A stretch of 64,000 nucleotides of DNA from a virus (IMGVR_UViG_3300024348_000007); one strand, 5' to 3'; shown: positions 30,801-47,293, counted from the first letter of the stretch. Numbers and translations are program-made. The notes: generated by a model from the sequence alone, not told the origin.

Positions 30801-33433
30801 TAAGAGTTGATAACAGAGATATTGAGCCAAATGATCATACTGCAGGCAGATTAACGTTTGGTTTCACATCTTGGAATAATAACAACACATCACCTTGGGC
30901 TGATTATTTACACTTAAGATCTTATACAGATGCATCAGGTGGATCAGATAACCTTCTTATGTTTAAGAAGTCTGGTCGTGGAATGCGTTTATGGCAACAA
31001 ACTTTTAACAGTGGTACAGCGTATTCCGCGTATTCTGATGTTGCGATATATAACGCAAACCCTGGTAATACGCCTTTCTATGCATCAAGATACTATGATT
31101 CAAATAATACTGCATACTACGGTGATTTTGCATCAACATCCATTGTTAATATAATTAGGTATGCGTCTGGTGGTTATGCAGAGTTCCAAACAGCAGCCGG
31201 TAATATTCGCGGATATATGCAAGCAACTGACGACAACGATGCGCACCTTAAAATTGCTACATCGGGCGGTGAAGATATTAGATTTACGGACGGCGGCCTA
31301 TCCGGTGATTGGAATGTGATTATCAGAGGTGATGGTCAAACATTAATTCGAAGCAGATTAGACACTCCTATCATGTACGATAGAGATGATACTGGTTATT
31401 ATAGTAATCCAGCAGGAGCCTCCAACTTTAATACAAGTATTCGCGCAAACGAGGTTTATGCACGTAACTGGTTCAGAAATGATAACTCTGGCGAGGGTAT
31501 GTATAACCAAGCAACGGGTATGCATTGGTATTCAACAAATAATACCACTTGGAGAGCATACGGCGGACAGACTACTGTAAAAATAGAAATGAACACAGCT
31601 AGTAATACTTTAAGAGGTTCATTCTACGCAAACAATAGTGATGAAGTAGGTATCTTATCTCAAGATAATGGTTGGGCTTTACAAGCTACTAACTCTAAAG
31701 TAGATGCGCACCATAATTTCTATGCTCCTATCTTTTATGATAGAGACGATTCAAATTATTATGTAAATCCAGCCGGCGATGCAAGAATTTCTGGTACTGT
31801 TCAAGCAAACCGTTTTACACATAGAGATGCAGTATCACAAAACGATACTTTTGGACTATATTTTGCTGATAACGCATCTACTGCATACGCGATTTATCGT
31901 GAAAGCGGTGGTTGGAGCAGCCCATATCCAGATTTAAGAATTGCTTTCCATACTGGTATTAAGTTTGGTGCAAACTCTGGTTACCAAGGTATGCGTTTCT
32001 ATAATGACTATAACATGGTTACTCAGGTTATGTCAATCAATAATGGTAGTGACCCATTAGGTGCTAACGATGTTTATGTAAATAACTCATTGCAATCAGG
32101 CAATTCATTAAGATCGCCTATTTTTTATGACTCGAACGATACAGCTCGTTACACGAACCCTGCAAGTACATCTGAAATGGGCACTATACGAGCCGATCGT
32201 TTTGATATGCGTGATCGTGGAGATTGGATTACTTTCTATGGTGATGATAGTACAAACCATGGTATTGCATCTCGTGGTTCTACAGGAACCGCAACTGACG
32301 ATATTCGTATTAACACCTATGGTTCTCTTTTTATTAACCTAGACTCAAACAACAATAATACATCTGGAGCTGACTTCTATATTGGTCGCCATGGTAGTGC
32401 TACTGGTACTATTGCTAATAGTGACTTGTTTAGAGTATACGGTGATGATAACTATGCTTACTCAGCATACAGTTTCAGAGCGCCTATCTTCTATGACTCA
32501 AACGACACTGGTTATTATTGTAATCCGAACAGTTCATCTAATTTTGCTACATCTGTTCGTGCAAATGAATTCTATGCTCGTAACTGGTTCCGTAATGATA
32601 ATGGCGCAGAAGGTTTATATAACCAAAATAACGGTTGTCACTTCTATGCGAGATCGTCTCAATACTGGCACGCGACTGGTAATAATAACGCCAGTGCTAT
32701 TAATATGCAATTAAGATCAACATATGACGGCAATATTAGGATGTGGTTACACGGTGACTCATCAAGTTGGTGTGGATACTTAAATGATGGCGGTCAATGG
32801 ATGATTAGAACTAGAATGACAGATGGTTCGTCTCCAAACCACTGGTATTATGAGGATTCAAACACAACTTGGACCGGTAACCCTGGGAATGATAAAGGTA
32901 AAATTGAATATCACTCAGATAGATTTTATATCGCTGCTGGTGGTAACTCAAATAGAATTTGTCAATTCCGTAGAGATGGTACTGATAAAGCTTATGTTAA
33001 TAACGATGGCGTTTATGTCGGTACAGCTACGTCAGCACAATGGGCTGACCTTGCAGAAAGATATAGCGCTGACGAAGTTTATGAGAATGGTACATTACTA
33101 GGTATGAACCTAGACGGTGAATCTGAAGGTACTCTTTATCAACCAGGAATGCCTATCTTAGGAGTTATTTCTACATCGCCTGGTGTTAAAATGAACGACA
33201 TGGAAATCGAAGATGATAACTCTCTTGAAGGTAAAATGAACCCTTATATTGCTCTTAAAGGACGTATACCGTGTAAAGTAAATGGAGACGTTAAAAAGGG
33301 TCAATGGTTAATACCTGATATTGACGGTAAATGTAAAGGAATAGATTATGGTACTTCTGGTATAAATAGTCATGAAATTATAGGAATTGCGCTTAGCGAC
33401 TCCGAAAATGGTGAAGTAGAGGTGAAAGTATAA
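24863..33433 (+). CDS. long tail fibre (~2856 aa) with C-terminal autoproteolytic intramolecular chaperone (Peptidase G2-like)
   Basis: ATG at 24863 follows a GGGGAGAG SD. GSGLDADLLDG motif and many 'P.FYDS..T.YY..PA..S' repeats. C-terminal WADLAERY...ILGVIST.PG..MN...IALKGRIPCKV.G.VKKG domain. Confidence 0.8.
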   Translation: MANDKKFIVKNGLQSENNVLVGTTTDDGVNKLQVSGTTKLINSGSSVPITIENTGGINTPLINFEGGVGALQVKNTGSGDYSILNTSGANEIKFNDNTANGLVFIAGNTDQLKINTTVADFTNVPSINGVPVWYSGNDGAGSGLDADLLDGLNSIQFLRSDENDTFDGDLVITGDLTVQGTRTEIISETVLIADNIITLNSNFTASNPTENAGIEVERGTLTNSIFQWNETMDWWELNSAGTSLGRIITTADEGSGNGFDADTVDGLQASQFIRSDVNDVATGNLEFEGTVAIGNEAGSALLTMRGAGTNRVLSSDNGKIGFLDTGFAYNTYSDANYNWHVGNDVIAKRLLDADDNSYLVDPAGESQLNDVVLVGELYGHDGTAKDGSTYIDLQNNGTTGLIYFNVDGAGLHTTLSKDQMFVNKKVVAPRFEDSNDNGYYVVPSSVSRLSQIQIDDYIIHKGDTNTYFGFDTDDSYKLYINGVQQLAMSASSAVFTNDVEAARFVDSDNNSYFLDPASASTLNTIGIDSDLFHNGDTDTKLSFGTNQIDFNTGGTQRLSIANAASTFSHSVIAPNVYIDDYIYHTGDTPANTTYFGFSADDNFGVVLGGNGALLLTPTATTSIAYIYAPRFVDTDNSARYLDPSATSPLNNISLDGVLQNLNDPDTYLTFASDAVQFYTGNTLRAFINNSYLETTVSVRSPVYYGTSQIVDFLDLDAGAGSDALRVRGRLNIGGGTDVERFNDTTGNGGITISGYAGMGGTTNPSIQVSGANGARSLLSLNKIDIGGNPYSSKNNYFAEFLTDGAAAFSIRGDNSKNAYFIADADQKMVFMDSGANTRLAMDELGNTIIGNDSISFTQGSHTPVLASGAKTDGKLHVDGSIHINGADDALVIGGTTSTFLRDDELGFGSGGGFYMNDTTNLRVRNNKLLTSTGNASFAQYLDANDVLFYGDFASTSRMNNISLVGEVIHDGDTNTKIGFGTDQIIFTAGGTAQLNVYTTYAQATTDMRSPIFSDAGGTFKFEPNTSSAHRFTTPTGWLEIGSKVAGSTAFDTDRALFTFNKRVNFDGGISAADTNDDAYFNRYYDYGDNNYYIDAAGDSQLNTIDIDDFIRHRGDTGTYMGFSAAATYKVVIVGTERLNIDGNSADFNVDVYAPRYYDSNNTNYYVDPGSTSIVNNLRTNQIQMDGSSLIIDSPSGPKGTIMVTGERDSYAGYMIDNDWGFISSGATEMGLYNETDNEWSLLANRNNFTRLYSNNIHQIGAENGYGYAPNRMRAPIFEDSNDTAFYADLAGQSRLKSVKAGDSAIYNNTTYPLEVKSSQERMIVMQNTSADTNFPSILHNTRNSRATMALSFNNIGERFWFEENGNIQAYGAGIFGSLALNGGNEDLGLLKTYGSGLADLKMFDASDYWDKRVIQPMQGSENSATSSTGEYVKNGNGPFASSYALRTAGYRDFDSDYIPVQPGETIYVEQAVRNISGSGGLFYLGVRRYDKDKNPIASNDGIVYFGASAINNTSTSWTEYKGTHTLPTSHTPYNGSDGEGVRYVRVISLMNYSAGGATREFGPPILKRTNVQSDLVTPNLTVEVDLTVGGNATITGDLTVDDITADVITANRFADRGNTAYYVEPLTGAKVAGSWDWTNGSINNLNNLTFNDPGPNEGIKWNGGNLWQIYESPNDLATNTGGNLQFTSGANQGSMRLRVDTSGDVYAGRYHRAQRFYDTNNAAYYADPASTSVLNQVYINEYLRHSGDTDTYLRFIGADDMQLVAGGRQMLRMGEGTDPDRLRFVTDSNWTDSNGDWAMSRNVVVQGTHTAVNSSYAPIFYDYDDNAYYGNFAGTSLMNIVRANRFEVDGSTRYIDGISGQYGTIRVTGNTNGYAGYAINDDWVFMSSGAGMSGIYNDTNNEWSAQFLQNSDVKLYHNGGEKFSTNSGGATIYGRLIADYMADRNNTAYTVNPAGTSRFLDLDVDNPIGGNIAGYSENLLRVDNRDIEPNDHTAGRLTFGFTSWNNNNTSPWADYLHLRSYTDASGGSDNLLMFKKSGRGMRLWQQTFNSGTAYSAYSDVAIYNANPGNTPFYASRYYDSNNTAYYGDFASTSIVNIIRYASGGYAEFQTAAGNIRGYMQATDDNDAHLKIATSGGEDIRFTDGGLSGDWNVIIRGDGQTLIRSRLDTPIMYDRDDTGYYSNPAGASNFNTSIRANEVYARNWFRNDNSGEGMYNQATGMHWYSTNNTTWRAYGGQTTVKIEMNTASNTLRGSFYANNSDEVGILSQDNGWALQATNSKVDAHHNFYAPIFYDRDDSNYYVNPAGDARISGTVQANRFTHRDAVSQNDTFGLYFADNASTAYAIYRESGGWSSPYPDLRIAFHTGIKFGANSGYQGMRFYNDYNMVTQVMSINNGSDPLGANDVYVNNSLQSGNSLRSPIFYDSNDTARYTNPASTSEMGTIRADRFDMRDRGDWITFYGDDSTNHGIASRGSTGTATDDIRINTYGSLFINLDSNNNNTSGADFYIGRHGSATGTIANSDLFRVYGDDNYAYSAYSFRAPIFYDSNDTGYYCNPNSSSNFATSVRANEFYARNWFRNDNGAEGLYNQNNGCHFYARSSQYWHATGNNNASAINMQLRSTYDGNIRMWLHGDSSSWCGYLNDGGQWMIRTRMTDGSSPNHWYYEDSNTTWTGNPGNDKGKIEYHSDRFYIAAGGNSNRICQFRRDGTDKAYVNNDGVYVGTATSAQWADLAERYSADEVYENGTLLGMNLDGESEGTLYQPGMPILGVISTSPGVKMNDMEIEDDNSLEGKMNPYIALKGRIPCKVNGDVKKGQWLIPDIDGKCKGIDYGTSGINSHEIIGIALSDSENGEVEVKV
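33361..33368 (+). promoter_or_regulatory. candidate late promoter TATAAATA inside the 3' end of the fibre gene
   Basis: Exact consensus 67 bp before the ATG of the first Cys/His-tailed gene. It is intragenic, so it could be chance. Confidence 0.5.
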
Positions 33434-33434
33434 T

Positions 33435-33848
33435 ATGCCATCATATGCAGATTTAAACACTAGCATGCAAGAAAAAGCTGGGGCACAGCTACGCACGTTT
33501 GATAAAGGAATTACTATTACAATACAATCGTGGGTTCGTATTTGGGGGTTTGATAGCTCTTACGGATCATGGATGATTGTTAACGGCTATGGTTGGTATG
33601 GTAATAGTGCTCATTACCACAGATTTGAATATGTTAACGCAAATAACACATTGTTTGAAAACTATCTTGATGGCGGAATATATACCGGTGGTATTATCCG
33701 TTCACAAGATGTTATTGATTCAATTACCGATGTTGTTCGAAGAGCTGTTGATTTGGTCGAAGGCAGACTAACTAACAGAAGTATGACTGCACGTCCTTGT
33801 CACCAAAGCTGTCATAGTAGTTGTCATACATCTAGAGGAAGAAGATAA
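33435..33848 (+). CDS. putative radical-SAM substrate / fibre-tip protein A with C-terminal CHQSCHSSCHTSRGRR
   Basis: Starts 1 nt after the fibre stop. Aromatic-rich core with a Cys/His/Ser repeat tail. Paralog of the next gene. Confidence 0.65.
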   Translation: MPSYADLNTSMQEKAGAQLRTFDKGITITIQSWVRIWGFDSSYGSWMIVNGYGWYGNSAHYHRFEYVNANNTLFENYLDGGIYTGGIIRSQDVIDSITDVVRRAVDLVEGRLTNRSMTARPCHQSCHSSCHTSRGRR

Positions 33849-34270
33849 TGGCTGCATCAGTATCTGACATTAACTCATATGTACAAACATATTCTGGCTC
33901 ACAACTAAGAACTTTTGATAAAACCGTCACATATACCGTAAATACGTATGTTCGGTATTATCGATTTGATAGCGCATATGGCGGTGCGTTGAGGCTTGAC
34001 GGTGCTCAATATACTACAAACTCAACCTTTACTAGAAGATATCTTCATTACTCCTGGACCGGGCGCGATGCACTCTTTGACGGCTATTATGACTCTGGAA
34101 TTACTGCAGGTGGACTTATGTATGCTCAAGATATTGTAGATACTGTAGAAGATGCTGTAAGAAGAGCTGTTGATCTAATGGAGGAAAGAATCGTAAATAC
34201 AGTCAAGACAATTAACGCGTGCCATGCTAGTTGCCATAGTAGTTGTCACACATCGAGAGGAAGACGCTAA
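33848..34270 (+). CDS. putative radical-SAM substrate / fibre-tip protein B with C-terminal CHASCHSSCHTSRGRR
   Basis: TAATG overlaps on both sides. Shares QLRTFDK, FDSxYG, LFxxYxDxGIxxGG, QD, D.VRRAVDL.E.R and the tail with protein A. Confidence 0.65.
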   Translation: MAASVSDINSYVQTYSGSQLRTFDKTVTYTVNTYVRYYRFDSAYGGALRLDGAQYTTNSTFTRRYLHYSWTGRDALFDGYYDSGITAGGLMYAQDIVDTVEDAVRRAVDLMEERIVNTVKTINACHASCHSSCHTSRGRR

Positions 34271-35445
34271 TGTCTATGCAAAAATCATATTGTAAACAAA
34301 TGAGATATTCTGGACCAGAAAGTCTAACACCATCTGATGCATCTAAATTCGATGTTCTTATTCAAATGGAAGTTTTAGCTGGGTGCGATCACGGTTGCTT
34401 AGGTTGTTTCGTAGATAAAAACATTAATCCTGATATGAACCAACAAATTATTGATAGAGCAAAGGAACTCGCTGATGGTGTAAAAAGAACTGGGCTTAAT
34501 CTTAGAGAATTTGTCATAGGTCCAACAGATTTCTTTTCTGCAACTAACACGGAGTCAGTTTTAAATAACTCAGTAGTCCAAGAGATTATGAGAGAACACG
34601 TTGGCGCTCGGATTGCAGCACCTGCAAAATTTGATATCGCTACAATGGAAAGAGTAAAAGAAATCTATGCAATTCTTGATGACGAAGATAAGTATCGCCG
34701 TGATATGATCATTGAGTTTATTATGCCAATCGGTAAAGTAGATCAGATGTTAAATGATGAAGAATACTTTAATAATGTTATGGAAAAAGTAGAATTCTTT
34801 AAAAATAATACACCAAAACAAATGGATTGGTCTTGGACACTACAGGCTTCTAACGTTGTTGGTAAGAAGATTGATAAAGAAACATATAACAAGATTGTTC
34901 AAAAATCAGTAAACGAATACAAGACTATTGTAGAAATGAACCCTGCTTTCTCAAGAGCGAGATCCCAATTGGTACAGCGTAGAAACCTGTTTGGATGGAA
35001 CGATTTCCTTGGTAGAGTTATTGATAAAGATAACGCACAAGAGACAGTTATGTCAATGGCTAATCTTTATTGTAACTCAATTAACTTTATTGGACTTACA
35101 ATCGTACCAGGAGAACACGGACCTACTACACATTTAAATGTAATGCTACACGAACAAGCATTCTTCCTTAATAATAAAAACTTAGACGTTACAGGTCTTA
35201 CCTTCGAAGAAATATTAGATCGTAAAAACGAGCTAGTAACCAAGGGCATAAATAGATCAAGCAAAGTATCTGATTGCAACGGATGCCAATTTGCCGTAGC
35301 TTGTGCAAGTAGACTAATTTTTGAAGCTCAAGAAACTTTAAACGTCGATGGATGTGTTTTAAACAAAGATGTCCTTGCAGAATATAACCCATACGATTGG
35401 ACTTGGAACGACGATGCGATGGAAAAACTAGGAGTAACATCATGA
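34270..35445 (+). CDS. radical SAM protein 1 (IGPTD family, C-terminal Cys cluster)
   Basis: EVLAGCDHGCLGCFV (CX3CX2C), VIGPTDF, and CNGCQFAVAC...GC. The ATG at 34270 overlaps the upstream stop. Confidence 0.85.
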   Translation: MSMQKSYCKQMRYSGPESLTPSDASKFDVLIQMEVLAGCDHGCLGCFVDKNINPDMNQQIIDRAKELADGVKRTGLNLREFVIGPTDFFSATNTESVLNNSVVQEIMREHVGARIAAPAKFDIATMERVKEIYAILDDEDKYRRDMIIEFIMPIGKVDQMLNDEEYFNNVMEKVEFFKNNTPKQMDWSWTLQASNVVGKKIDKETYNKIVQKSVNEYKTIVEMNPAFSRARSQLVQRRNLFGWNDFLGRVIDKDNAQETVMSMANLYCNSINFIGLTIVPGEHGPTTHLNVMLHEQAFFLNNKNLDVTGLTFEEILDRKNELVTKGINRSSKVSDCNGCQFAVACASRLIFEAQETLNVDGCVLNKDVLAEYNPYDWTWNDDAMEKLGVTS

Positions 35446-36524
35446 TAGGTCAACACCTTTATTTTTTAAATAACAAAAAATATATTACAAACTCGACTAA
35501 TCTCGAAACTGTATTTTTCGAGATGAACTCGTTTTATCACACGAAAACACCTAGAACAGTTTGTATGATTGAATCATCAATGCCAGACAGCCAAATCGTC
35601 CAGTATGATGTAAGAGTACGTGCTGATTCTATTCGCGCTAATGCCGGTGCTGATATTATTTTTAAACCTTGGGAAGAAGTTTGTACTAGTGAGTTTATCC
35701 AAAATAGCGAAAAATATATTCTTGTAGCTTGGGAAGAAGAAGATCAAATTCACATTCACGCAAGATATGCCGCTGGCTTATTAGCCGCTGCTGGTTTCTA
35801 TGCAGATACTGATCACGACGTAAACACTATTGTTGGTGAATTTATGGAAAAAATCTTTGATTGTGATAGTATGTTCACGTATATGTCAGCGGCTCCTGCC
35901 GTTCAAGATATATCAAACACAGTTGAAACTATTTTGAATAATCCAGAAACTCCACCTTTTGATGTTATATATCAAAACGGTAAAAACTTTAGCTATGACT
36001 TTTTATTCTTTTTAAACGAATTCTATCCCTGCGCAGAAGTACAAGCTCTGTTAATCGAGAAGTTTACAATTCATAGCGCTGATATGGCACAAGATGTTAT
36101 GGAACACTTTACGTCACGGCGCCACTACTTGGCATATATTCTTTCTGTAATTGATTGGATGAACAATAACGGTTTACCAGTAGATAAACAACAATTTGTA
36201 AACGATGTTTATATGAAAGCTGCTAATAAAGGTAATTATCAAATTGCGTTTTATCAATTGGAAGAGTTATGGAATAGGGTAAAAGATAACGAAGCTTTCA
36301 TTCTTGCACATACTGATAAAAGAGATAACACAAGAGATGGTTGGGAATTTTGGGATATGTATACCGAAATAAGCAACGTATTCCCTATCGTTAAAAAGGT
36401 GCTTGAGCGTAGTTTTGATATGGATAATCTAACAGAAGACTTGAGGTTGATTAACACTGATGTTCAGTTCTTCTCTAAAAGACAAAATAGAATTCCATAT
36501 TTGATACACAAATACACATTATAG
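35442..36524 (+). CDS. hypothetical protein (~360 aa) in the radical SAM operon
   Basis: ATGA overlap with rSAM1 and a GGAG SD; no motif recognised. Confidence 0.65.
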   Translation: MIGQHLYFLNNKKYITNSTNLETVFFEMNSFYHTKTPRTVCMIESSMPDSQIVQYDVRVRADSIRANAGADIIFKPWEEVCTSEFIQNSEKYILVAWEEEDQIHIHARYAAGLLAAAGFYADTDHDVNTIVGEFMEKIFDCDSMFTYMSAAPAVQDISNTVETILNNPETPPFDVIYQNGKNFSYDFLFFLNEFYPCAEVQALLIEKFTIHSADMAQDVMEHFTSRRHYLAYILSVIDWMNNNGLPVDKQQFVNDVYMKAANKGNYQIAFYQLEELWNRVKDNEAFILAHTDKRDNTRDGWEFWDMYTEISNVFPIVKKVLERSFDMDNLTEDLRLINTDVQFFSKRQNRIPYLIHKYTL

Positions 36525-36534
36525 GATGTAATAA

Positions 36535-37440
36535 ATGAATGATAATGATACAAACAACTTGAATCCAGACAGAGAATTCGAAGATCACAAACTTTCAGAG
36601 CGTGAGAAGAATTTTAAAGCTTATACTTTACCTCTTGCTCCTCAAGATTTAGTTGCGATATATAAACAAAAAGAAGAAGATAAAGACTTTATTCTCTATG
36701 TAGACTACTATCAAACTAAACAGAAATTAAGCCCTAAGCATATTATTATATATTTGGCAAACACCAACTTTAAGGCTGGCTTTACTTTCTTAGATGAAGA
36801 ATTAATTACAGAATATATTAAATCAGATTTTATGATTGATTGTCCAATTCTTGTGCGTATGGTTTCTATTATAGTCAGAATGAGATTGCATTATGATATC
36901 AATGGTGCTGAAAAGAAATTAACTATTTTATTCCCAGAAGAAAAAATACATCAATTTATTGAACAGAACATTGAATTAGTCGATGAACTAATCGAAACTA
37001 TTAGAGATTCTGTGCCGTGGGCTATGGTTAATTTGCATGAAAACTTGACTGACGAAGCCAAAAAAGAAGAGAAAGAACTTACAAACTTTATTAATAATAT
37101 TGATGTTTATGATAAACCATCGAATTGCGGACCTAACGTTGCACGATTTATTACAGAAGCTTGGGACGGGTTTTTATGTATTATTCATAATAAGGGTGTA
37201 AGCTCGACTTATAATAAAACAGTTTATAATGAACAACCAAAGTACTTTGGTAAAGATTTATACTACATTATGAACGAAACTAGGGTTATAGATCAGATTA
37301 TGGCATTGTTCCCATCATGGTTTTGGGCTAAAATCGAAACAGTAGATATAAACGCGCTATTAGAAGAAACTGAGGGCGAACATATCGATAAATTTGTCGA
37401 CGGTCTTGAAGATAAGTTCAATGATAGTCCATCTAAATAA
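36535..37440 (+). CDS. hypothetical protein (301 aa) in the radical SAM operon
   Basis: Acidic, helical-looking ORF with an AGGA SD; no motif recognised. Confidence 0.65.
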   Translation: MNDNDTNNLNPDREFEDHKLSEREKNFKAYTLPLAPQDLVAIYKQKEEDKDFILYVDYYQTKQKLSPKHIIIYLANTNFKAGFTFLDEELITEYIKSDFMIDCPILVRMVSIIVRMRLHYDINGAEKKLTILFPEEKIHQFIEQNIELVDELIETIRDSVPWAMVNLHENLTDEAKKEEKELTNFINNIDVYDKPSNCGPNVARFITEAWDGFLCIIHNKGVSSTYNKTVYNEQPKYFGKDLYYIMNETRVIDQIMALFPSWFWAKIETVDINALLEETEGEHIDKFVDGLEDKFNDSPSK

Positions 37441-38443
37441 TTCTTATGCTGGCTATTATACATATGATGAAGATAAAAGTCCAACAAATATTGATTTTCT
37501 CAGAACAGAAATAAATTTAGATATCTTACACGGATGTTCTCAACAATGTCCTGGATGCTTTATACCAAGAAAAAACTTAACAAAAGCAGATAACCTAGAA
37601 ACCTTATATAATCTTCTTATAGAAGGCGCGTATTATCCTGACGAAATAACAATCGGCCCAACTGATATATTCGATGCTGAAAATTTCAATGAAATCATGA
37701 ATCATCCTTATATGGAAAAAATATACGGAATATCTGCAGTAGGATTTACATCCACTTTAACTCAACCTTATCAATTAATAAGAGATAAACTTGATAAGAT
37801 ATGGAGTTTATATAACAATATAGCGAGAATACCGGATATTGATTTTAAAATTGTTTTAGATATAAACAAATATTTAGATGGAGAATTAGATGATTGGTAT
37901 CGTAAACTTGCGATGTTTAAACATGGTTCTGTGCAATTTAGAGTTAACTATCATAAAGATATATTCAAACGCATTTCATACAATGAATTAGCTCAAAAAG
38001 TATTCGATGACTTTAACGCGCCAGTTATAATCACGCCTTCTTTCTTAACTGATAGAAATGCAAGAGGTAAAGTAGAACAACACCTTGCAAACTTTAGACG
38101 TGAAATGGTTGAACAAAACATAGATAAAAAATGGCTAAACTTATATACATTTTTTGATGCGAAGTTTAACGGTTATGGTTGTCAAAATTATAGTTTTTAT
38201 AATAACAAACTCTATATTAATCCATTCTTATATGATGTGATTATTCAACGTACACCTCAGTTTGAAACAAATATGGATGCTAATACTTTATACGACAACA
38301 TAGAATATGCACAACAAGTTGATGACTGTAATGGATGTGAATATATGATGAGTTGTGCAGAACGCAACGTTCATTTGTATATGGAGTCGAGAGGATTAGA
38401 CACTTGCGTCGCATTGAAAGAATACATGTATGCCTCTAATTAA
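37421..38443 (+). CDS. radical SAM protein 2 (IGPTD family)
   Basis: DILHGCSQQCPGCFI, TIGPTDI, and CNGCEYMMSC...TC. Confidence 0.85.
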   Translation: MIVHLNNSYAGYYTYDEDKSPTNIDFLRTEINLDILHGCSQQCPGCFIPRKNLTKADNLETLYNLLIEGAYYPDEITIGPTDIFDAENFNEIMNHPYMEKIYGISAVGFTSTLTQPYQLIRDKLDKIWSLYNNIARIPDIDFKIVLDINKYLDGELDDWYRKLAMFKHGSVQFRVNYHKDIFKRISYNELAQKVFDDFNAPVIITPSFLTDRNARGKVEQHLANFRREMVEQNIDKKWLNLYTFFDAKFNGYGCQNYSFYNNKLYINPFLYDVIIQRTPQFETNMDANTLYDNIEYAQQVDDCNGCEYMMSCAERNVHLYMESRGLDTCVALKEYMYASN

Positions 38444-39587
38444 GAATAATCTATACTATGAGATGACCACAGAGACTCAGACAAAGCCTGTATCAGCGGT
38501 TAAGATACAGCTAGACGTTTTAGACGGATGCCACCATAAGTGTCCTGGATGCTTTGTACACAGACGTGGTAACTCAAGTGATAAAAATCAGTTAGAGAAT
38601 GCAAAGCAATTTATCAGAAGTATTACAGATCAAGGCATACTTGTTGATGAAATATTAATTGGTCCTACTGACTTTTTAGCATCAGAGAATTTCTTTGATG
38701 TCATGCCTGATTTATTAGATATTATAAATGAGAACTCTCCTATATTAGCGTTTGTTTCTACATTAATTGATGGAGACATAGAAGGATTTTGCGAGTTTAT
38801 TACAGACTATGTAAATTTAGATACTGAGATAGAAATAGGTATTGCGTCAAATCCTTATAAGTTTTTCGATAAAGACTATTTACAACACATCTCTGATATG
38901 TTATATTATATAGATCAAAATCTAGAACATGAAGTAACTTATACTTTTGTTGTTAATATAAGAGATTACGATCTAGATTATTCTGAACTTCACAGATACG
39001 CGGTAGAAAAGTTTGATACAATCCTAGATTTTATTCCAAGCGTATCGCGCTCTCATAAAGCAAAAATGATTTTAGAAACTCTTGATAAGTTTAATGATTA
39101 CTTTAATGTCTTAGCCAAAGATACTAATCTTAATAACATTATGGTTGATCATTCTCATGCTGGAATTAATTATACTGTTTTAAACTATAAAAGAGGAGAG
39201 TGGTATCTTAGTCCGTTTATGTATGAAAATATGGCAATATACCATGAAATGTTTAAGATAGATTCTTTTGAAGATGTCGTACCAATGGTAGAAGACCAGA
39301 TACGTAGAGCAAAAGGAACTGAATGTGAAAATTGCGAGTTGTTTTTTTCTTGTTATAATAGAAAAATTATCTTATTAAGAGATTATTTAGGAGTCGATAG
39401 ATGCATTGCTCCTAAAAAGAATATGTTGAACAATATACACAATTATAATGGCCCTGCACAAGAAATGTATAAATGGGAAGGATATTCTGTAGAGAATGAC
39501 AAAAAAGGTTATCGCAAAAAGTTTTTAGTCACCACAGATGATGATCCAGAATTAGAAAGAATTAAGGATATATCTTATGTTAAATAA
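38430..39587 (+). CDS. radical SAM protein 3 (IGPTD family)
   Basis: DVLDGCHHKCPGCFV, LIGPTDF, and CENCELFFSC...RC. Confidence 0.85.
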   Translation: MPLIKNNLYYEMTTETQTKPVSAVKIQLDVLDGCHHKCPGCFVHRRGNSSDKNQLENAKQFIRSITDQGILVDEILIGPTDFLASENFFDVMPDLLDIINENSPILAFVSTLIDGDIEGFCEFITDYVNLDTEIEIGIASNPYKFFDKDYLQHISDMLYYIDQNLEHEVTYTFVVNIRDYDLDYSELHRYAVEKFDTILDFIPSVSRSHKAKMILETLDKFNDYFNVLAKDTNLNNIMVDHSHAGINYTVLNYKRGEWYLSPFMYENMAIYHEMFKIDSFEDVVPMVEDQIRRAKGTECENCELFFSCYNRKIILLRDYLGVDRCIAPKKNMLNNIHNYNGPAQEMYKWEGYSVENDKKGYRKKFLVTTDDDPELERIKDISYVK

Positions 39588-40734
39588 TGATTGGAAAGAT
39601 ATAGTAAGTGGAGGCGGAATGGGTGAAGAGTTCGCTTCTATTGATAGTATGAAACAATATAAAATTCAAGTTAACCTAGAAATATTAGAAGGTTGCTCTT
39701 ATATGTGTCCTGGTTGTTTTGTGAAACGTCGCGGAAACTGGCATCCAAAATCAATAACAATGTTTCATTCTTTGGCTTACGAATTAAAAGATAGAACAGA
39801 CATCGTATTAGATGATATTGTGATAGGACCTACTGATTTCTACGGAGCTGAAAACTTAGATGAGATTATCAATAATTTAAAATTATCTGACGCCATTAAG
39901 ATGATGCCAAAAGATAATAGAAACATTCAACACAATTGTTCTATACTTGGTTCGTTATCTGAGAAAGATATTGAAGGAAAGATAAGAGATATTGAGAAAT
40001 CGCCTTTAGGAGAAGCAGTAGAAGCCTGGGATGTTCAGATCGCTTTGGATTTAAATCGATTAATGAATGACCAAGAATATATCGATGCGCTTGATGAAAG
40101 GATAGAGACATTTAAAAACAGCTCTTTAAACTTCGAAATATCAATGGCTACTAATATCGTTCAAGGTGTAGAAGAAATACTATACCCAGCTATTGATTTT
40201 GTTCGTTCGAAATACGAAACTGTTATCGAAGTATTACCTTCTGTAGTTAGATCATTTAACCATAGTGCAAAGCACGGTGATAAACTATTTGAATGGAATG
40301 ATATGTTAACTCGATTGGCATTAGATACGCATCGTTTTAAAAATAAGTTTCACTTCTTACAGGGAGATGTATCGCATAAAGCATTTAATTATTCAGTTAT
40401 AAGTATTCACAAAGGAAACATGTATTTGTCTCCTTTCATATACGAAAATGCTCAGATACACACAGAAGATTTTCTAGTATCTGATGGTTGGATGTGGTTA
40501 CCAGATGCTGATATATCTGATTTCATACTAGATAGAAAGAATGAAATTGTCAATAGTCAAATTGAAAATAGTCTTGAAAAAGAATGTGGAACATGCAAAT
40601 ATCTTAACATATGCGCGAACAGAATGGTGCCATTAATAATGGATACAGTATTTAATGGAAGAAAGGAATGCATTCTTAATAAAGATGTTATTGCTTTATT
40701 TGATGATGAGGTTTATCATGGGAATAGTTACTAA
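39577..40734 (+). CDS. radical SAM protein 4 (IGPTD family)
   Basis: EILEGCSYMCPGCFV, VIGPTDF, and CGTCKYLNIC...EC. Confidence 0.85.
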   Translation: MLNNDWKDIVSGGGMGEEFASIDSMKQYKIQVNLEILEGCSYMCPGCFVKRRGNWHPKSITMFHSLAYELKDRTDIVLDDIVIGPTDFYGAENLDEIINNLKLSDAIKMMPKDNRNIQHNCSILGSLSEKDIEGKIRDIEKSPLGEAVEAWDVQIALDLNRLMNDQEYIDALDERIETFKNSSLNFEISMATNIVQGVEEILYPAIDFVRSKYETVIEVLPSVVRSFNHSAKHGDKLFEWNDMLTRLALDTHRFKNKFHFLQGDVSHKAFNYSVISIHKGNMYLSPFIYENAQIHTEDFLVSDGWMWLPDADISDFILDRKNEIVNSQIENSLEKECGTCKYLNICANRMVPLIMDTVFNGRKECILNKDVIALFDDEVYHGNSY

Positions 40735-41737
40735 TAACCTAAGAGCTGCTAAAGCTGATAAAGATTTTGATCTATCATTCTCTGAAGGACATGAAATTAA
40801 AGTACAGTTTAATTGCGAAGTATTATCGGGGTGTGAGTTTAAATGTAAAGGTTGTTTTGTAAACAAACTTGGTTCCAACATGGGATCTTATGATAGACTT
40901 AATAACGCTATAGATTTATTTAATGCAAACGGTTACAGAGTGTCAACCATTAATATTGGGCCTACTGATTTATTTGGTAATAATAATGTTATCGAGTTAT
41001 TAAAAGACGAAACATTTCGAGAGTGTTTAAGCAAGGTTTCTACTATACAATTCGTAACAACCCTAACAAGCATTTCGCAAGAAGTTATTGAACTACTTAA
41101 CAGCATCCCTAAAATAGATGGATTTTTATATGATTGTAATATAGCTTTACAACCTCCTGTAAATTGGGATTGGGTAGAAGAGCGATTAGACCTTCTGAAT
41201 GGATTTACGGATGATCTAAATTATTATATGGTTTATAACATGGGTAATGATGACGAGTACAATTCTAAAGTGCTTGAAATGTCAGAACTTGTTGAGGATA
41301 GGTTTGACTCAATCCTTACATTAAACCCGTCATTCTTTAGAGCACCAAAATCTAAGGTTCAAAAACATCTTATTGAGAAATGGAAGAACTATGACTTCTC
41401 AGATAATCTTATGCCTAAAACATTTATTGACCAAGCGCAAGGTGGTTCTTTAGAGTTAAACTATACTTACTGCAACGAACGTTTCTTTTGGACGCCATTC
41501 GTATATGACATCGCTTTAATAGGTACTGATGAATTCCAAGTTAAAGATGAGAACGATATTGAATCATGGACTCAAGTAAAAGAAAATAAGTTTATGTCAC
41601 AGTTGTCTTATTCAAGTAAAACTGATAACTGCGCCTCTTGTAAAAACCTAATGACATGTATTGATAAAGGCGTATTAAGTTATATGGAACATCATTCACT
41701 TACGGGCTGTACGTTTCCTGGAGTAATAACGACCTAA
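40718..41737 (+). CDS. radical SAM protein 5 (IGPTD family)
   Basis: EVLSGCEFKCKGCFV, NIGPTDL, and CASCKNLMTC...GC. ATG at 40718 follows a GAGGT SD. Confidence 0.85.
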   Translation: MGIVTNNLRAAKADKDFDLSFSEGHEIKVQFNCEVLSGCEFKCKGCFVNKLGSNMGSYDRLNNAIDLFNANGYRVSTINIGPTDLFGNNNVIELLKDETFRECLSKVSTIQFVTTLTSISQEVIELLNSIPKIDGFLYDCNIALQPPVNWDWVEERLDLLNGFTDDLNYYMVYNMGNDDEYNSKVLEMSELVEDRFDSILTLNPSFFRAPKSKVQKHLIEKWKNYDFSDNLMPKTFIDQAQGGSLELNYTYCNERFFWTPFVYDIALIGTDEFQVKDENDIESWTQVKENKFMSQLSYSSKTDNCASCKNLMTCIDKGVLSYMEHHSLTGCTFPGVITT

Positions 41738-42409
41738 GAATGTTCTTGGAAACGAATCATTAATCTTACCCCATTGTTCCATGCTATCTACAAATATATT
41801 TTTAAAAGTAACATCGATATCTTCCATTGGATAAATCGCCATCAGATCGTTACCGTAATTTAATCTAACTTCGTATGTTTCGTCTTTTAAAGGAAACAAT
41901 AAGAATACATTAATCGCATGTTGATCATAGAAATTAAGAACGCCTGGTGCTACAAGTATCCCATGCTTGCGTAAATCTTCACTGTAATGAAATTCACAAT
42001 TCATAAAATCTACTGGCTTCTTAGCTTTTAAATACCAAGGAGCTTCTAATTTCACGACAGCATATCCCTTATAAAAATCATCGCCATACTGTCTTTGTTC
42101 ATGCACACCAGTACTGACTTGATGAGAATGCAACGGACTTGCAGACGAAACCTTTCCGTTTGGTTCAACTCTAAAAATCATATCGGACCACAATCTCATT
42201 ATAATAGCTTTTTGCATATATTGTGTAATTCCAGGACAAGCCTTTACAGTTGGGGTTGGAACCATAATGCCTGACTTTGAATTATAAACAGTGTACATTG
42301 TCGACAATTTTTTCCACCATGAAGGCTTTCTAATTTTAGATGTCCATTTAAAATTTTCGAAAACGCTTTTATCGTAAGTGTAAGCTTCAATCTCTAGTTT
42401 TTTTCTCAT
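41696..42409 (-). CDS. phage hypothetical protein (beta-rich; KPSWWK...TVKACPG...WSD type)
   Basis: Motif type I recall from marine T4-like phages, often near oxygenase genes. Last gene of the minus-strand operon; its 3' end overlaps rSAM5. Confidence 0.6.
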   Translation of the reverse strand: MRKKLEIEAYTYDKSVFENFKWTSKIRKPSWWKKLSTMYTVYNSKSGIMVPTPTVKACPGITQYMQKAIIMRLWSDMIFRVEPNGKVSSASPLHSHQVSTGVHEQRQYGDDFYKGYAVVKLEAPWYLKAKKPVDFMNCEFHYSEDLRKHGILVAPGVLNFYDQHAINVFLLFPLKDETYEVRLNYGNDLMAIYPMEDIDVTFKNIFVDSMEQWGKINDSFPRTFLGRYYSRKRTARK

Positions 42410-43466
42410 AATCAAATCCTGTAATTAAGTTCTGTCCAGTTTTTTCCATATAGTTAAACCACATTCTCATGATGCAGTCAGGTAAGTCTCGTTCTCTATT
42501 CTTCCAATCCCATTGGGTATAACATCTAAATCCACATTTGTTCCACCACTTACAAGATAAACAACCATTCTCGTCCATATATGCTTGCATCATACCAGCA
42601 TTATCTTTGGGTTTATATTCTGTATTAAAATCTCTCTGATCATATCTATCCCATCTACAGTTTGACGTAGAATTATCGGGGAATATCGTAACCTTATTTA
42701 AAGCCAAGCAATGCATATGGTTACTATCATTATATATAAGATCTTTTATAGGATTAATATCGGGATAGTTATGATATACAAATTTAAGAAATTCTAAGTA
42801 TTCACTATCAGATGGAATCATATAATCATAACCACGATCTGGAATGTAATCATCAAAGTAAAAGTTATCAAACTTTTCATATAGATAGTGAAAATACTCA
42901 TCATCGTCTGCCATAAACTTTTTTATTGATAAAGTAGTAGCAACCATATTAATTGATACGATATAGTCGGCAAAGTATTCTATATTTTTAGCATATGGAC
43001 CTTTTGTTGGTCGCCCATCAAAGTCATATGAACATATAATATGTGAAGGAATTGCTTCAGCGTTTAGGTCGTCGAGCAGTCGCTGAACTCTGTCTCGTTT
43101 ACTAAATTGAAACGATGTTACCCACACAACTTTAATTTTTTGTTTATGTTCGTCAAATATCTTTTTAATTGCTACAAGGAAATCAAAGTAAACAGGGTAA
43201 GCCCATTCTGATATTCTATCTTGGAATAACTCACCGCCAACCATATTGATTTGGATTATATCAACTCTGCCTTTCATCTTAATGACATGTTGTTCAACTA
43301 AATCCAATTTAGAGAATATCTCTTCCCTACTCAATCCTACGGTAGATTTTTTATCATGATGGCAGAACGAACAATTGAGGTGACAGTTTTCAAATAAAGT
43401 CAACTCAATCTCAGCGATATCAGGTCGTTTAGTTTCTAATAATGTTTTTGTTATTTCAAAGTCCAA
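42387..43466 (-). CDS. radical SAM/SPASM protein 6
   Basis: Probable TTG start after an AGAGGA SD. LFENCHLNCSFCHH, MVGGELF, and CLALN...NCRW...CLSCKWWNKCGFRC...C. Confidence 0.85.
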   Translation of the reverse strand: MDFEITKTLLETKRPDIAEIELTLFENCHLNCSFCHHDKKSTVGLSREEIFSKLDLVEQHVIKMKGRVDIIQINMVGGELFQDRISEWAYPVYFDFLVAIKKIFDEHKQKIKVVWVTSFQFSKRDRVQRLLDDLNAEAIPSHIICSYDFDGRPTKGPYAKNIEYFADYIVSINMVATTLSIKKFMADDDEYFHYLYEKFDNFYFDDYIPDRGYDYMIPSDSEYLEFLKFVYHNYPDINPIKDLIYNDSNHMHCLALNKVTIFPDNSTSNCRWDRYDQRDFNTEYKPKDNAGMMQAYMDENGCLSCKWWNKCGFRCYTQWDWKNRERDLPDCIMRMWFNYMEKTGQNLITGFDYEKKTRD

Positions 43467-43854
43467 ATAACATTTCCTCTTTATAGTATTCGTAGATATC
43501 GGGAACCATACCAAGTTTTTCATTAAACTCTAGTTGGAATAGTATCTCGTCGTAAGTTTCTTTGTCTTGCCAATATGGAACAAAGTGCGGATCATTATTA
43601 AATAGTAACTCAGGATCGTTAAGTGCATCGAAAAACGGTTCGTTAAAATCCCTGTTTAACCAATGAGCATAACATATAGCAACTACATATGATTTAGCTG
43701 GGTAAATCCATTCGTCTACATACTCTCTGAAGTGTGTTAGAGCAAACTCAACCGTAAGGTCAGGTTGCCAATTAATCTCCACGTCAGTCAGATCATCTTT
43801 GAATAAAGATGCTGTCAAATGATATGCGCTTTGTCTAGCTTTCCATTCTTTCAT
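43456..43854 (-). CDS. hypothetical protein (~132 aa) between radical SAM genes
   Basis: Overlaps both neighbours; aromatic and acidic; no motif recognised. Confidence 0.6.
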   Translation of the reverse strand: MKEWKARQSAYHLTASLFKDDLTDVEINWQPDLTVEFALTHFREYVDEWIYPAKSYVVAICYAHWLNRDFNEPFFDALNDPELLFNNDPHFVPYWQDKETYDEILFQLEFNEKLGMVPDIYEYYKEEMLFGL

Positions 43855-44743
43855 AATATTCCAACAATCCTTTATATCCATTACAACTATTAGTCAAATC
43901 TTTAACATATCGGTAATGTTCTGTTAAACAATTACCATAATATTTACACGTCTTACATATTTCGCTTAGATTGTTCTCAGGTTCTTCCCTTGCCCACTTC
44001 TTGTACTCATAATATGTTTTATATTCTTTGAAGTATTCCCTATCATATTTATCGAACTCCAATACCCCAAACTTACCAGATGGAGTAATATACACATGAT
44101 CATTACTAAAAGCATCATACTCTTTATCTATGCTTCTCCATATATTATCCATATTCTGAAAATTAAACTTTTTCTCTGTTTTTGCTTCGTCAAACTTAAT
44201 AACAAAATCTTCAAAGTCTTTGTGTGTAACAGGATGTGCATTTGCTTGGTTTATTGAGTAAGGTTTAATTTCTACAGACTTAATATTAGATACCATATTA
44301 AGAGTGAAGATCATAAACTCTACATCCATCTCTAATACTTTTGGAGAGGCCAATATTAATACAGATAAATCCTTATTGGCGTTCATCATATTATTTAAAA
44401 CATGCTGTTCTTTTTCTCTGGCATGGAAATCATATGATACAGATAATGTTACATCCTCATCTCGAAAGAAGTCTGGGAACGCAGACAAATTAGTATTGAT
44501 ATTGATAGGACCTTTGTAATAATTACGTATTACTTTCTTTAATGAATAATAATATTCTGGTGATAGTAAACCAATCTCACCGCCGTATAGATCTACGTGC
44601 CCTATTTGATCATCTACTTGACTTAAAGAATGATCTAACCATAAAGGCGTTATCTTATGTCTATCGTTTAATTGTGCTGGCGTTAAATAACAAAAATCAC
44701 AACTGAAGTTACAATAGTAGGTGGGATTAATTGATAGATTCAT
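43835..44743 (-). CDS. radical SAM protein 7 (short SPASM-like C-terminus)
   Basis: INPTYYCNFSCDFCY, LYGGEIG, and CKTCKYYGNC...SC. Confidence 0.88.
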   Translation of the reverse strand: MNLSINPTYYCNFSCDFCYLTPAQLNDRHKITPLWLDHSLSQVDDQIGHVDLYGGEIGLLSPEYYYSLKKVIRNYYKGPININTNLSAFPDFFRDEDVTLSVSYDFHAREKEQHVLNNMMNANKDLSVLILASPKVLEMDVEFMIFTLNMVSNIKSVEIKPYSINQANAHPVTHKDFEDFVIKFDEAKTEKKFNFQNMDNIWRSIDKEYDAFSNDHVYITPSGKFGVLEFDKYDREYFKEYKTYYEYKKWAREEPENNLSEICKTCKYYGNCLTEHYRYVKDLTNSCNGYKGLLEYYERMES

Positions 44744-45764
44744 CAACATAAGGCGTCACCATATCTGGGCTCATTCCATTCGTAGCAAGTATTCTTGGAG
44801 CGAGCGTTTTCATTTGTTTGCAATGTGCTTCATTTGTCCCTTCTCTTTTCATATCACGTACTGTCTTTTTACAACCATTACATATTTCGAACATTGGACA
44901 CGTATAGCAAGCCATCTTCATTGTTTGGATATGAGGATCGTTAGCCAATGGAGTCTGCATTTCGCCATTCATTTCTTCCTCAAAATCAATAGGATAATCC
45001 ATATCATCAGCAAACGAACCGCAAGAATAGTAATCACCGCCAGGGTTAAAAGCTCGAATGCCACTATCACATTGTCTATTTTGTGGACAAGATGTTGAAA
45101 AACCTTTGAGGCGTTTCATCATTTGCTTTGTATTATATTCGTATTCTGCTAATCCACGATCGTATATCTCAAGATATGTTTCGTAAATCTTACTTAACTG
45201 ATATGTACTGCCTTGAACACCAGAAGCCATAGCATAATTTAGTTTGCATTCTACACCCATTTCTTTAGCAAGTTCAACGTTCTTAATAGCAAGATGTTCG
45301 TTCTCATCTGTTATGACGGCAATAAAGTCTGGTCTTTCTCCAGTGTGTTTCAACATAGCGTTTGATACCATCCAAAAATCTTTCTCAGTAAATTCGGAAT
45401 AATCACCTTTTAATCTACCACCACCATATTGAAATGATGTTGCACAACCAAACCTATCATTCTTAAAGATAGGAAGCCACTTCTCGGGACGCATTAAAAA
45501 AGGCCACAGATTAGATGTAAAACTAATTGATGCGGGATAATCATGTTCATTAAGATGATCTATTAGTTCCTGATAATATTCTGGCTTTACCATAAGAGGG
45601 TCACCACCATTAACGATAATAGTATTAGTATCGGGATATCGCTTAAGAAATTTGTATATGTATTCCAAGTCTAATAAGCCAACTTCGTTAGGATCGATGT
45701 CGGTAGAAGAACAAAATGTACATTTAAAATTGCAAGCTTCAGTGGGTTTAATAATTAAATCCAT
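44727..45764 (-). CDS. radical SAM/SPASM protein 8
   Basis: IKPTEACNFKCTFCS, NGGDPL, and CPQNRQC...YSCGS...CYTCPMFEICNGC...HC. Confidence 0.9.
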   Translation of the reverse strand: MDLIIKPTEACNFKCTFCSSTDIDPNEVGLLDLEYIYKFLKRYPDTNTIIVNGGDPLMVKPEYYQELIDHLNEHDYPASISFTSNLWPFLMRPEKWLPIFKNDRFGCATSFQYGGGRLKGDYSEFTEKDFWMVSNAMLKHTGERPDFIAVITDENEHLAIKNVELAKEMGVECKLNYAMASGVQGSTYQLSKIYETYLEIYDRGLAEYEYNTKQMMKRLKGFSTSCPQNRQCDSGIRAFNPGGDYYSCGSFADDMDYPIDFEEEMNGEMQTPLANDPHIQTMKMACYTCPMFEICNGCKKTVRDMKREGTNEAHCKQMKTLAPRILATNGMSPDMVTPYVDESIN

Positions 45765-46783: not shown

Positions 46784-47198
46784 GTGATAACATTAGTGCC
46801 TTTTCATAATTTAACGCTCTGTGCGGTGTTCCTGCTTCTATGAACAGAGTTTCATTTTTAGATAAAGAAATCTCTTTACCTTCAACTTCCATGATCTTAG
46901 TTCCTTCGACGCATTCTATAATAACATCAATTGGATCAGTATGTACATCAAAAGATGCACCGTTTTCCTGATTATAAAAAACATGAACAGTTCCGTTATT
47001 AATGCCTAAAGGTTTTTCAAACTGTTCTACTTTAATGGTAGCTTTATTTGCTAATAAAACCGTAGTTTCTCCAAGATAAGCAATGTATTCTGATTGTTTT
47101 ATGTAATGCTGATTTCCATCTTCATCTATATGAGATACGTCGTGGTTATTAAAGCATTCTTCTGTTAATAAGAAATTTTCAAATTGGTCAAATGTCAC
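46743..47198 (-). CDS. cupin / JmjC-like putative Fe(II)-2OG hydroxylase
   Basis: GTG start after a GGAGA SD. FDVHTDPIDVII..GTK...LFIEAGTPHRA gives the HxD...H facial triad. Confidence 0.7.
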   Translation of the reverse strand: MTFDQFENFLLTEECFNNHDVSHIDEDGNQHYIKQSEYIAYLGETTVLLANKATIKVEQFEKPLGINNGTVHVFYNQENGASFDVHTDPIDVIIECVEGTKIMEVEGKEISLSKNETLFIEAGTPHRALNYEKALMLSHGIHDSETLNRIR

Positions 47199-47223
47199 TA
47201 CTATTCTCCATGTCGTATATATC

Positions 47224-47231
47224 TATTTATA
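47224..47231 (-). promoter_or_regulatory. T4-type late promoter (TATAAATA on minus strand)
   Basis: TATTTATA on + strand, ~25 bp upstream of the cupin gene that heads the minus-strand radical SAM operon. Confidence 0.75.
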
Positions 47232-47258
47232 CCATAATTTTAGAGCTTTGTAAACCGT

Positions 47259-47266
47259 TATAAATA
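47259..47266 (+). promoter_or_regulatory. T4-type late promoter TATAAATA
   Basis: Exact consensus upstream of the 2OG-Fe(II) oxygenase gene, divergent from the 47224 promoter. Confidence 0.75.
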
Positions 47267-47293
47267 ATTGTATATATTATGAGGAGATTGATT

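Follow-up and report, generated by a model that had tools for sequence, protein, structure and literature searches.

Background

Radical S-adenosylmethionine (SAM) maturases are known from bacterial pathways for the synthesis of RiPPs (peptides that are made on ribosomes and then modified post-translationally) and of cofactors. Here we examine what appears to be a virus-restricted branch of this superfamily, duplicated up to six times, of which five members (R1 to R5) are encoded within positions 34270-41737 of IMGVR_UViG_3300024348_000007, a stretch of 64,000 nucleotides (nt; hereafter the window) that comes from the genome of an uncultured marine T4-like myophage. A preliminary description had set these genes apart by an Ile-Gly-Pro-Thr-Asp (IGPTD) motif in the place of the Gly-Gly-Glu (GGE) motif. 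Directly upstream of R1 lie two genes for small proteins that end in three Cys-His-x-Ser repeats followed by RGRR, referred to here as the (CHxS)3-RGRR tail.

The known enzyme that best matches the family over both the barrel and the C-terminal domain is the anaerobic sulfatase maturase anSMEcpe (PDB 4K36-4K39), which likewise has no N-terminal RiPP recognition element (RRE), carries a CX2CX5C...C cysteine set after helix alpha2', and acts on a folded protein. Unlike anSMEcpe, with which sequence identity is 12%, the family lacks the cysteines of auxiliary cluster I (Aux I), has Pro-Thr-Asp (PTD) for GGE, and has Gly for the aromatic residue of the SAM-cluster motif. Anaerobic sulfatase maturases recognize the substrate motif Cys/Ser-x-Pro/Ala-x-Arg; the last repeat of the tail reads C-H-T-S-R, with Arg at +4 and no Pro or Ala at +2.

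The SPASM-domain RiPP maturases (ChlB, CteB, TigE, SuiB, and PqqE) share their fold with the family (Z 11-15) and modify a ribosomal peptide or protein by H-atom abstraction; among them, ChlB is a multiple cyclophane synthase that forms three-residue cyclophanes (PMC12912966), and CteB is a thioether-forming maturase. These enzymes possess the full seven- or eight-cysteine SPASM motif and mostly an N-terminal RRE, whereas the family has neither and shows no family-level sequence match to them. The His-x-Ser triplets of the tail presumably fit the aromatic-x-x pattern of cyclophane synthases (triceptides).

A functional analogue is offered by the HXS antiphage system, in which the His-x-Ser repeat protein HxsA is reported to be matured by two radical SAM enzymes, HxsB and HxsC, together with a small helper, HxsD (PMC13128918); it is the use of several radical SAM enzymes plus a helper on a His-x-Ser repeat protein that makes the two comparable. 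HXS is a bacterial defence system, unlike the present cassette, which is a phage late operon, and the canonical radical SAM neighbours of R1 to R5 match the HxsB and HxsC models only weakly (15-33 bits versus cut-offs of 268-370).

Marine T4-like environmental genomes have been reported to carry up to 12 radical SAM genes (PMC5332604), and in pelagimyophages radical SAM cassettes are located in the host-recognition cluster (PMC7029224). Papers on the phages pPa_SNUABM_DT01, FLC6, and S13 list the genes and nothing more, and our literature search found no paper on the IGPTD family or its motifs. The family escapes Pfam and NCBIfam cut-offs, with the consequence that its genes appear as 'hypothetical' in phage genomes. 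The duplication described here sits in a late, fibre-adjacent block of abundant marine T4-like phages, and members also occur in jumbo phages that infect Ralstonia, Burkholderia, and Pseudomonas and can be cultivated. Should these enzymes indeed tailor a protein of the virion or one associated with the fibres, they would add to the chemistry of the phage particle, and possibly to variation in host range, in a way that we found no paper describing. For enzymology, the family provides a natural test of SAM-motif drift (GGE to PTD, aromatic residue to Gly) and of an Aux II-type cluster without Aux I.

Results and discussion

Fold of the five paralogs

R1 to R5 are predicted to be radical SAM enzymes of SPASM-type architecture with a SPASM-like domain, because this is what an AlphaFold2 model of R3 and its structural neighbours indicate. 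The model, built from a 135-sequence alignment (predicted local distance difference test, pLDDT, 91.7; predicted template modelling score, pTM, 0.92), displays a (beta/alpha)6 core with six beta-alpha units. The barrel begins at residue 23, and, as in anSME, no N-terminal RRE is present. Strand beta1 (residues 23-29) is followed by the Cys loop, alpha1, and beta2 (71-78), with P79-T80-D81 directly after, and then by four more beta-alpha units; the C-terminal part consists of a beta-hairpin (248-260), a helix (280-294), and then four cysteines.

Foldseek combined with VIA-align gave anSMEcpe as the best match (Z 15.6 over 295-303 residues, root-mean-square deviation 4.3-4.6, at the 12% identity noted above). 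Further matches were ChlB (Z 14.5-14.8), CteB (13.1-14.1), TigE (13.4), SuiB, SkfB, MoaA, and PqqE. An independent scan of 48,161 PDB representatives returned the same ranking, and its best 19 matches were all radical SAM enzymes. The top structural matches are peptide- or protein-modifying enzymes.

Shared sequence signature

The five open reading frames (ORFs) and the motifs listed for them in the preliminary description were all borne out by an ORF check and a five-way alignment. R1 (34270-35445, + strand, 391 amino acids, aa) has its Cys motif at 34384-34407, PTD at 34522-34530, and the C-terminal four-Cys set at 35275-35355. R2 (37394-38443, +) encodes 349 aa when read from a TTG start, with an alternative ATG at 37421, and carries the same three elements at 37535-37558, 37658-37666, and 38327-38407. 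The modelled paralog, R3 (38430-39587, +), and R4 (39577-40734, +) are both 385 aa long, and the R4 elements lie at 39694-39717, 39829-39837, and 40585-40671. R5 (40655-41737, +) comprises 360 aa from the first ATG, further in-frame ATGs following later, and has the elements at 40832-40855, 40961-40969, and 41630-41710.

Pairwise identity among the five is 19-23%. Invariant in their alignment are L, G, C, C, G, C, and F of the (E/D)(V/I)LxGCxxxCxGCF block, I-G-P-T-D, and the four C-terminal cysteines, arranged as CX2CX5C with the last Cys 16-18 residues on; a PFxY(E/D) motif, previously assigned to four of the paralogs, is found in R2 to R5 and is absent from R1. Thirteen residues are conserved in at least 90% of the 135 full-length members, and these are the key residues of R3: C34, C38, G40, C41, P79, T80, D81, N87, R207, C299, C302, C308, and C325. 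The C-x3-C-x-G-C motif, invariant in R1 to R5, is conserved at that same level of at least 90%. The family signature is properly x-P-T-D, as the preceding residue is Gly in most members and the motif reads Q-P-T-D in phage RSL2.

Motif sharing is not due to chance, because a profile of the 135 members scores R1 to R5 at E-values of 1e-72 to 1e-80. No other ORF of the window matched this profile, and the next-best matches among the ORFs searched were canonical radical SAM ORFs of the RSL2 (~1e-5) and pPa_SNUABM_DT01 (~1e-3) loci.

Family limits and distribution

The view that these proteins form an atypical radical SAM family without a characterised assignment was upheld, all Pfam and NCBIfam scores being under cut-off and no sequence match to the PDB being found. 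The best score to PF04055 was that of R3 (20.6 bits versus a gathering cut-off of 29.5); R1, R2, R4, and R5 gave no PF04055 match at E <= 1, and R2 gave no match to any model. R4 alone scored against TIGR04085 (SPASM), at 14.1 bits versus a cut-off of 27, and none of the five matched TIGR03942 (anaerobic sulfatase maturase) or TIGR03978 and TIGR03977 (HxsB and HxsC). All five matched the unannotated PHROG 31457 (E 1.5e-8 to 1.9e-5), three of them over partial length. Against PDB sequences, a profile of the 5 sequences had no match, and the profile of 135 sequences yielded nothing but a 17-bit match to the Cys loop of GDGT-MAS.

From 1.84 billion representative proteins, a profile search recovered 218 clusters at E <= 0.001, with no run-on into the radical SAM superfamily at large. 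The half of the family that is not marine amounts to 81 representative clusters. The first six rows of ESM Atlas neighbours were 97-100% viral, and three widely divergent queries returned an identical set of ten phages from the 50,697 cultured-phage records, namely the RSL2/RSF1/FLC/S13/RsoM3USA group of Ralstonia and Burkholderia jumbo phages and Pseudomonas phage pPa_SNUABM_DT01. Used individually as queries, the proteins P0159 and P0144 had no match in IMG/VR. From these searches, the family appears to be an essentially virus-only branch of the radical SAM superfamily.

In the RSL2 group the family gene is annotated as 'hypothetical'. The annotated start of ORF071 in RSL2 (AP014693.1, locus L006) is at nt 12076, after the Cys motif at nt 12028, and an in-frame ATG at 11971 restores the motif (ORF 11971-13035); the truncated start probably explains the label.

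The PTD motif at the GGE position

The placement of IGPTD at the GGE position, first proposed from the window sequence, is supported by topology, spacing, and profile alignment. In the R3 model PTD lies at the C-terminal end of beta2. The third Cys and the Pro of PTD are 34-39 residues apart in R1 to R5 and 40 in RSL2; the third Cys and the first Gly of GG(E/D) are 35-42 residues apart in C1 to C4, the four canonical radical SAM proteins of the same cassette, and the same spacing in SkfB is 36 residues (PMC6231123). An hhalign alignment with the C1 family is gapless from the Cys motif on and pairs P-T-D with G-G-E at 65% probability, the Asp of PTD aligning with the Glu of GGE and the acidic residue thus being kept.

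The Gly before the third Cys stands where CX3CX(phi)C has an aromatic residue, which in SkfB contacts adenine (PMC6231123). In the family an aromatic residue or His usually comes directly after the third Cys. PTD and Gly together represent two coupled changes at SAM-contact positions that were then frozen across the family. The absence of GGE and of the aromatic residue does not exclude membership of the superfamily.

The auxiliary cluster and the relation to C2

The cluster ligands of anSMEcpe are C317, C320, C326, and C348 for Aux II and C255, C261, C276, and C330 for Aux I (PMC5715301). The family keeps the Aux II pattern exactly, after helix alpha2', and the cysteine that would complete CX3C and both hairpin cysteines are missing. 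That most of the paralogs lack the AuxI-type Cys, as had been noted earlier, was confirmed in that no conserved Cys set lies between the barrel and CX2C. Ahead of the beta-hairpin, no more than a single Cys or His is conserved (C268 in R1, C263 in R2, H241/H243 in R3, and H267 in R4; none in R5). The residue in R1 to R4 sits roughly at the position of the first Aux I ligand of anSME.

The SPASM seven-Cys motif, CX9-15GX4C-gap-CX2CX5CX3C-gap-C, binds Aux I and Aux II (PMC6231123); the family has just CX2CX5C and one later Cys conserved, and so falls short of the full motif. The Twitch enzymes (BtrN, MoaA, and SkfB) resemble the family in that their SPASM domain is reduced and has one auxiliary cluster, but the reduction is the opposite one: in Twitch domains Aux I is retained and the CX2CX5CX3C block is missing (PMC5715301), whereas the family keeps CX2CX5C...C without the Aux I cysteines and is not a Twitch protein by definition.

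Within the cassette, C1, C3, and C4 carry full SPASM Cys sets. Among the families compared here, only C2 (RSL2 ORF077 is one of its homologs) shares with the IGPTD family a C-terminal set of just four cysteines (CX2CX5C-X14-C; C265, C268, C274, and C289); it has no Aux I set. It differs from the IGPTD family in retaining the canonical CxxxCxFC and GGE, in being ~60-80 residues shorter, and in an N-terminal half that aligns only weakly. The best profile match to the C-terminal domain of the family is nonetheless C2 (hhalign, 89% probability, E 2e-6), and on these sequence comparisons we infer that the IGPTD family either descends from a C2-like gene within this cassette or is its sister. A substitution of C2 by the family was considered and rejected, given that both occur together in the window, RSL2, pPa_SNUABM_DT01, and three further loci (L029, L059, and L081).

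Expansion, phylogeny, and conservation of each copy

Both the phage expansion of the family and the common grouping of the five paralogs, which had been put forward without a phylogeny, are supported: jumbo phages carry 1-2 copies and marine T4-like phages 2-6, and the five fall in one clade. A FastTree phylogeny of 143 members placed all five in one 59-row clade, each with its own orthologs. In an IQ-TREE analysis of 73 rows, the group containing the five (33 rows) formed one side of a branch with a Shimodaira-Hasegawa-like approximate likelihood ratio test (SH-aLRT) value of 97, RSL2 and pPa_SNUABM_DT01 being on the opposite side; as the group was defined from the FastTree result, this is confirmation of the grouping by a second method and not an independent discovery.

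An IMG/VR scan with a peptide pattern built on IGPTD identified 58 loci. Most of them keep the array R1-unkA-unkB-R2-R3-R4-R5 at 62-95% identity, in dozens of marine viral contigs, where unkA and unkB are two genes that do not encode radical SAM proteins. Variants include R1 and R3 only, R2-R3-R1 (three loci), four copies, six copies, and arrangements with unkA and unkB between the tail genes and R1. One locus, L016 (IMGVR_UViG_3300013099_000077), combines four copies of the family with only one tail gene, whose body type differs, from which we conclude that the family has probably expanded more than once.

Across 216 full-length orthologs representing all five classes, CxxxCxGC is retained in 216, PTD in 214, and the four-Cys set in 212. 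Every copy appears to be under selection as an enzyme, because each motif set is kept in 212-216 of these 216 sequences, and R1 to R5 thus present themselves as old, separately conserved copies. Two of the earlier suggestions fared less well. Non-catalytic subunits find no counterpart in the data, since all three motif sets are kept by every class, and an assignment of one paralog per modification site is disfavoured because copy number does not track the three tail repeats, the same invariant tail being found with 0, 1, 2, 3, 4, 5, or 6 copies.

Linkage to the (CHxS)3-RGRR tail and to cassette partners

All 47 IGPTD-pattern loci for which upstream sequence is available encode one or two (CHxS)3-RGRR proteins; the other 11 of the 58 start inside the array or <1.7 kb before it. 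The same tail is found beside one or two family members in RSL2 (ORF068) and pPa_SNUABM_DT01 (L007 3071-3607). A DNA pattern for the tail detected at least 118 IMG/VR stretches, and a family member was present in 27 of 80 loci fetched. IGPTD-rich loci carry a particular short tail-protein body type of 125-143 aa, usually as a pair.

C4, the cupin, and unkB are near-constant partners of the cassette, and unkB belongs to the core of almost every (CHxS)3-RGRR cassette, with or without IGPTD genes. The family is an optional, expandable layer of the cassette and not part of its core. It is not needed for the basic product, because most complete tail cassettes lack it: only 5 of the 21 IMG/VR loci with at least three of C1 to C4 include a member.

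The gene unkA is present in every marine array fetched. Its AlphaFold2 model (pLDDT 81) has an alpha/beta domain at the N terminus and helices in the C-terminal half, without a significant PDB match (best E 0.037, to phosphatase-like folds) and without an invariant Cys; in BLASTP searches unkA was not similar to the same-position proteins of RSL2 or pPa_SNUABM_DT01.

The same kit is encoded in pPa_SNUABM_DT01 (L007 1526-12416), with all genes in one direction. The order there is cupin, C4-like radical SAM, tail protein, and two unknown genes, followed by three canonical radical SAM genes interspersed with a small hypothetical ORF, then two IGPTD-family genes, and two 2-oxoglutarate (2OG)-Fe(II) oxygenases with a hypothetical ORF between.

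Proposed role and alternative explanations

We favour, with slightly more confidence than doubt, the explanation that R1 to R5 are anciently duplicated, individually active, virus-restricted radical SAM enzymes whose likely substrates are the co-encoded (CHxS)3-RGRR proteins; judged from the sequences, activity of the five on these tail proteins is probable. Cluster content, SAM cleavage, substrate identity, and reaction are what we infer in the following scheme. Each paralog would most likely bind a SAM-cleaving [4Fe-4S] cluster on CxxxCxGC, with SAM held by a variant motif (PTD where GGE is usual, and Gly where an aromatic residue ordinarily precedes the third Cys), and probably one further [4Fe-4S] cluster on the four cysteines that correspond to Aux II of SPASM enzymes. 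Each would then abstract an H atom from a residue in its protein target, which is most likely one of the small co-transcribed proteins with three Cys-His-x-Ser repeats and an RGRR end. The family would in this way act as an optional tailoring layer over a core maturation kit of four canonical radical SAM enzymes, cupin, oxygenases, and unkB, and candidate reactions include Cys/Ser oxidation as in anSME, thioether formation, and a His-x-Ser crosslink of the cyclophane type.

Several observations weigh against this explanation. The hhalign pairing of PTD with GGE reaches 65% probability only. Without Aux I, and assuming the geometry of anSME, the remaining cluster would be distant from the active site, Aux II in anSME being 26.7 A from the SAM cluster (PMC5715301). 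The link between the enzymes and the tail as substrate comes from gene neighbourhood, and the 47 linked loci are mostly close kin rather than independent events. Finally, the family occurs in just the 5 of 21 loci mentioned above, and the tail sequence is identical in loci with and without it.

An elaboration that we would regard as a long shot is a 'reverse Twitch' enzyme, in which the vacant Aux I site is completed by the substrate: the three cysteines of the tail and the conserved Cys/His of R1 to R4 would ligate an iron-sulfur cluster or a metal at the active site, and the paralogs would install different crosslinks (His-to-Ser cyclophanes, thioethers), giving a covalently stapled, metal-binding tip on a host-recognition virion protein.

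The strongest of the alternatives to this explanation, which we consider unlikely but deserving of attention, retains active radical SAM enzymes and assigns them to the giant upstream fibre proteins (932-33433), to the variable bodies of the small proteins, or to a small molecule. It would accommodate a copy number (0-6) that does not follow the invariant tail, the association of IGPTD-rich loci with the 125-143 aa body type, and the constant adjacency of the cassette to fibre genes (in the window, and at ORF064/065 in RSL2); small-molecule enzymes are also found among the structural neighbours (MoaA, viperin, and BlsE, Z 10-11). However, the best structural matches, by 2-4 Z units, modify peptides or proteins, and R1, which in the window shares sequence with the stop codon of the second tail gene, abuts tail genes in most related arrays, which argues for the tail proteins.

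It is improbable, in our estimation, that the PTD and Gly substitutions alter the role of the cluster and lead to non-radical or otherwise unusual SAM chemistry. Two SAM-contact positions (G40 and PTD), the roles of which have been described for SkfB (PMC6231123), were changed together and then became near-invariant, and TsrM provides a precedent for altered chemistry (PMC9204698). Against this, a review of cobalamin-dependent radical SAM enzymes notes that the identity of the GGE residues varies and that the usual contact is a backbone hydrogen bond; among the variants A-D-E in OxsB, D-S-E in TsrM, and D-A-N in TokK, chemistry is altered in TsrM only, and TokK is a normal radical enzyme (PMC9204698). 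The family has no cobalamin domain, and the aromatic residue or His after the third Cys could replace the lost adenine contact. PTD is therefore a good family marker and not evidence of new chemistry, because GGE residues vary in active enzymes such as TokK.

A hetero-oligomer with some of the copies serving as non-catalytic scaffolds would suit the roughly equal dosage expected from five adjacent overlapping genes, but it is very improbable in view of the SAM-cluster Cys, PTD, and auxiliary Cys kept by every class (212-216 of 216 orthologs) and of related phages that manage with R1 and R3 only, with three or four copies, with one (RSL2), or with none.

Genomic setting and gene layout

Homologs of neck, sheath-stabiliser, terminase, sheath, and portal proteins are encoded downstream of the cassette. 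The portal protein has at most 53% identity to that of any cultured phage, the nearest being Stenotrophomonas phage DLP6, Sinorhizobium phiM12-like phages, cyanophages, and a Pelagibacter phage. The region had no Megablast match in the 50,697 phage records. Among genome contigs, a search with R1 alone found only three (L184-L186, FZLS01), all from the metagenome-assembled genome Rhodobacteraceae bacterium Water_Bin34 (G001). They carry three different relatives of the phage region at coverages of 6x, 66x, and 90x and are most likely mis-binned phage contigs rather than prophages, giving no reliable indication of the host.

Upstream of the cassette are five giant fibre-like ORFs (932-33433, +) of 4013, 1564, 1283, 795, and 2859 aa, the last of which contains many repeats with a short Y-x-D-P-type motif. 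After the last fibre gene, an unbroken + strand string is formed by the two tail genes, R1, unkA, unkB, R2, R3, R4, and R5, with genes abutting or overlapping throughout 33435-41737. The tail genes (33435-34270, +; individually 33435-33848 and 33848-34270) encode proteins of 137 and 140 aa with (CHxS)3-RGRR ends, the presumed substrates, and the ATG of R1, the paralog that adjoins the tail genes in related phages, shares 1 nt with the TAA of the tail gene before it. The gene unkA (35442-36524, +; ~360 aa) belongs to an ORF that opens at TTG 35397 and in which the conserved Met is residue 16; unkB (36535-37440, +) encodes 301 aa and belongs to PHROG 20767.

The 3' end of R5 overlaps a convergent minus-strand operon by 42 nt. 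The remainder of the cassette (41696-47863, mixed strands) comprises the canonical radical SAM genes C1 (42387-43523), C2 (43835-44749; 304 aa), C3 (44727-45764), and C4 (45755-46783) and the cupin gene (46743-47198), all on the - strand, and a 2OG-Fe(II) oxygenase gene (47279-47863) on the + strand.

Scans for sigma-70 promoters and terminators gave results at chance level. The T4 late-promoter core TATAAATA is found at 33361-33368, 67 nt before the first tail gene, with none within 33435-41737, and again at 47224-47231 (-) and 47259-47266, just upstream of the minus-strand operon and of the oxygenase gene. The 11 sites in the window compare with 10.6 expected by chance, so that the count carries no signal; their placement just ahead of gene starts (at least 8 of the 11 within ~70 nt upstream) is suggestive.

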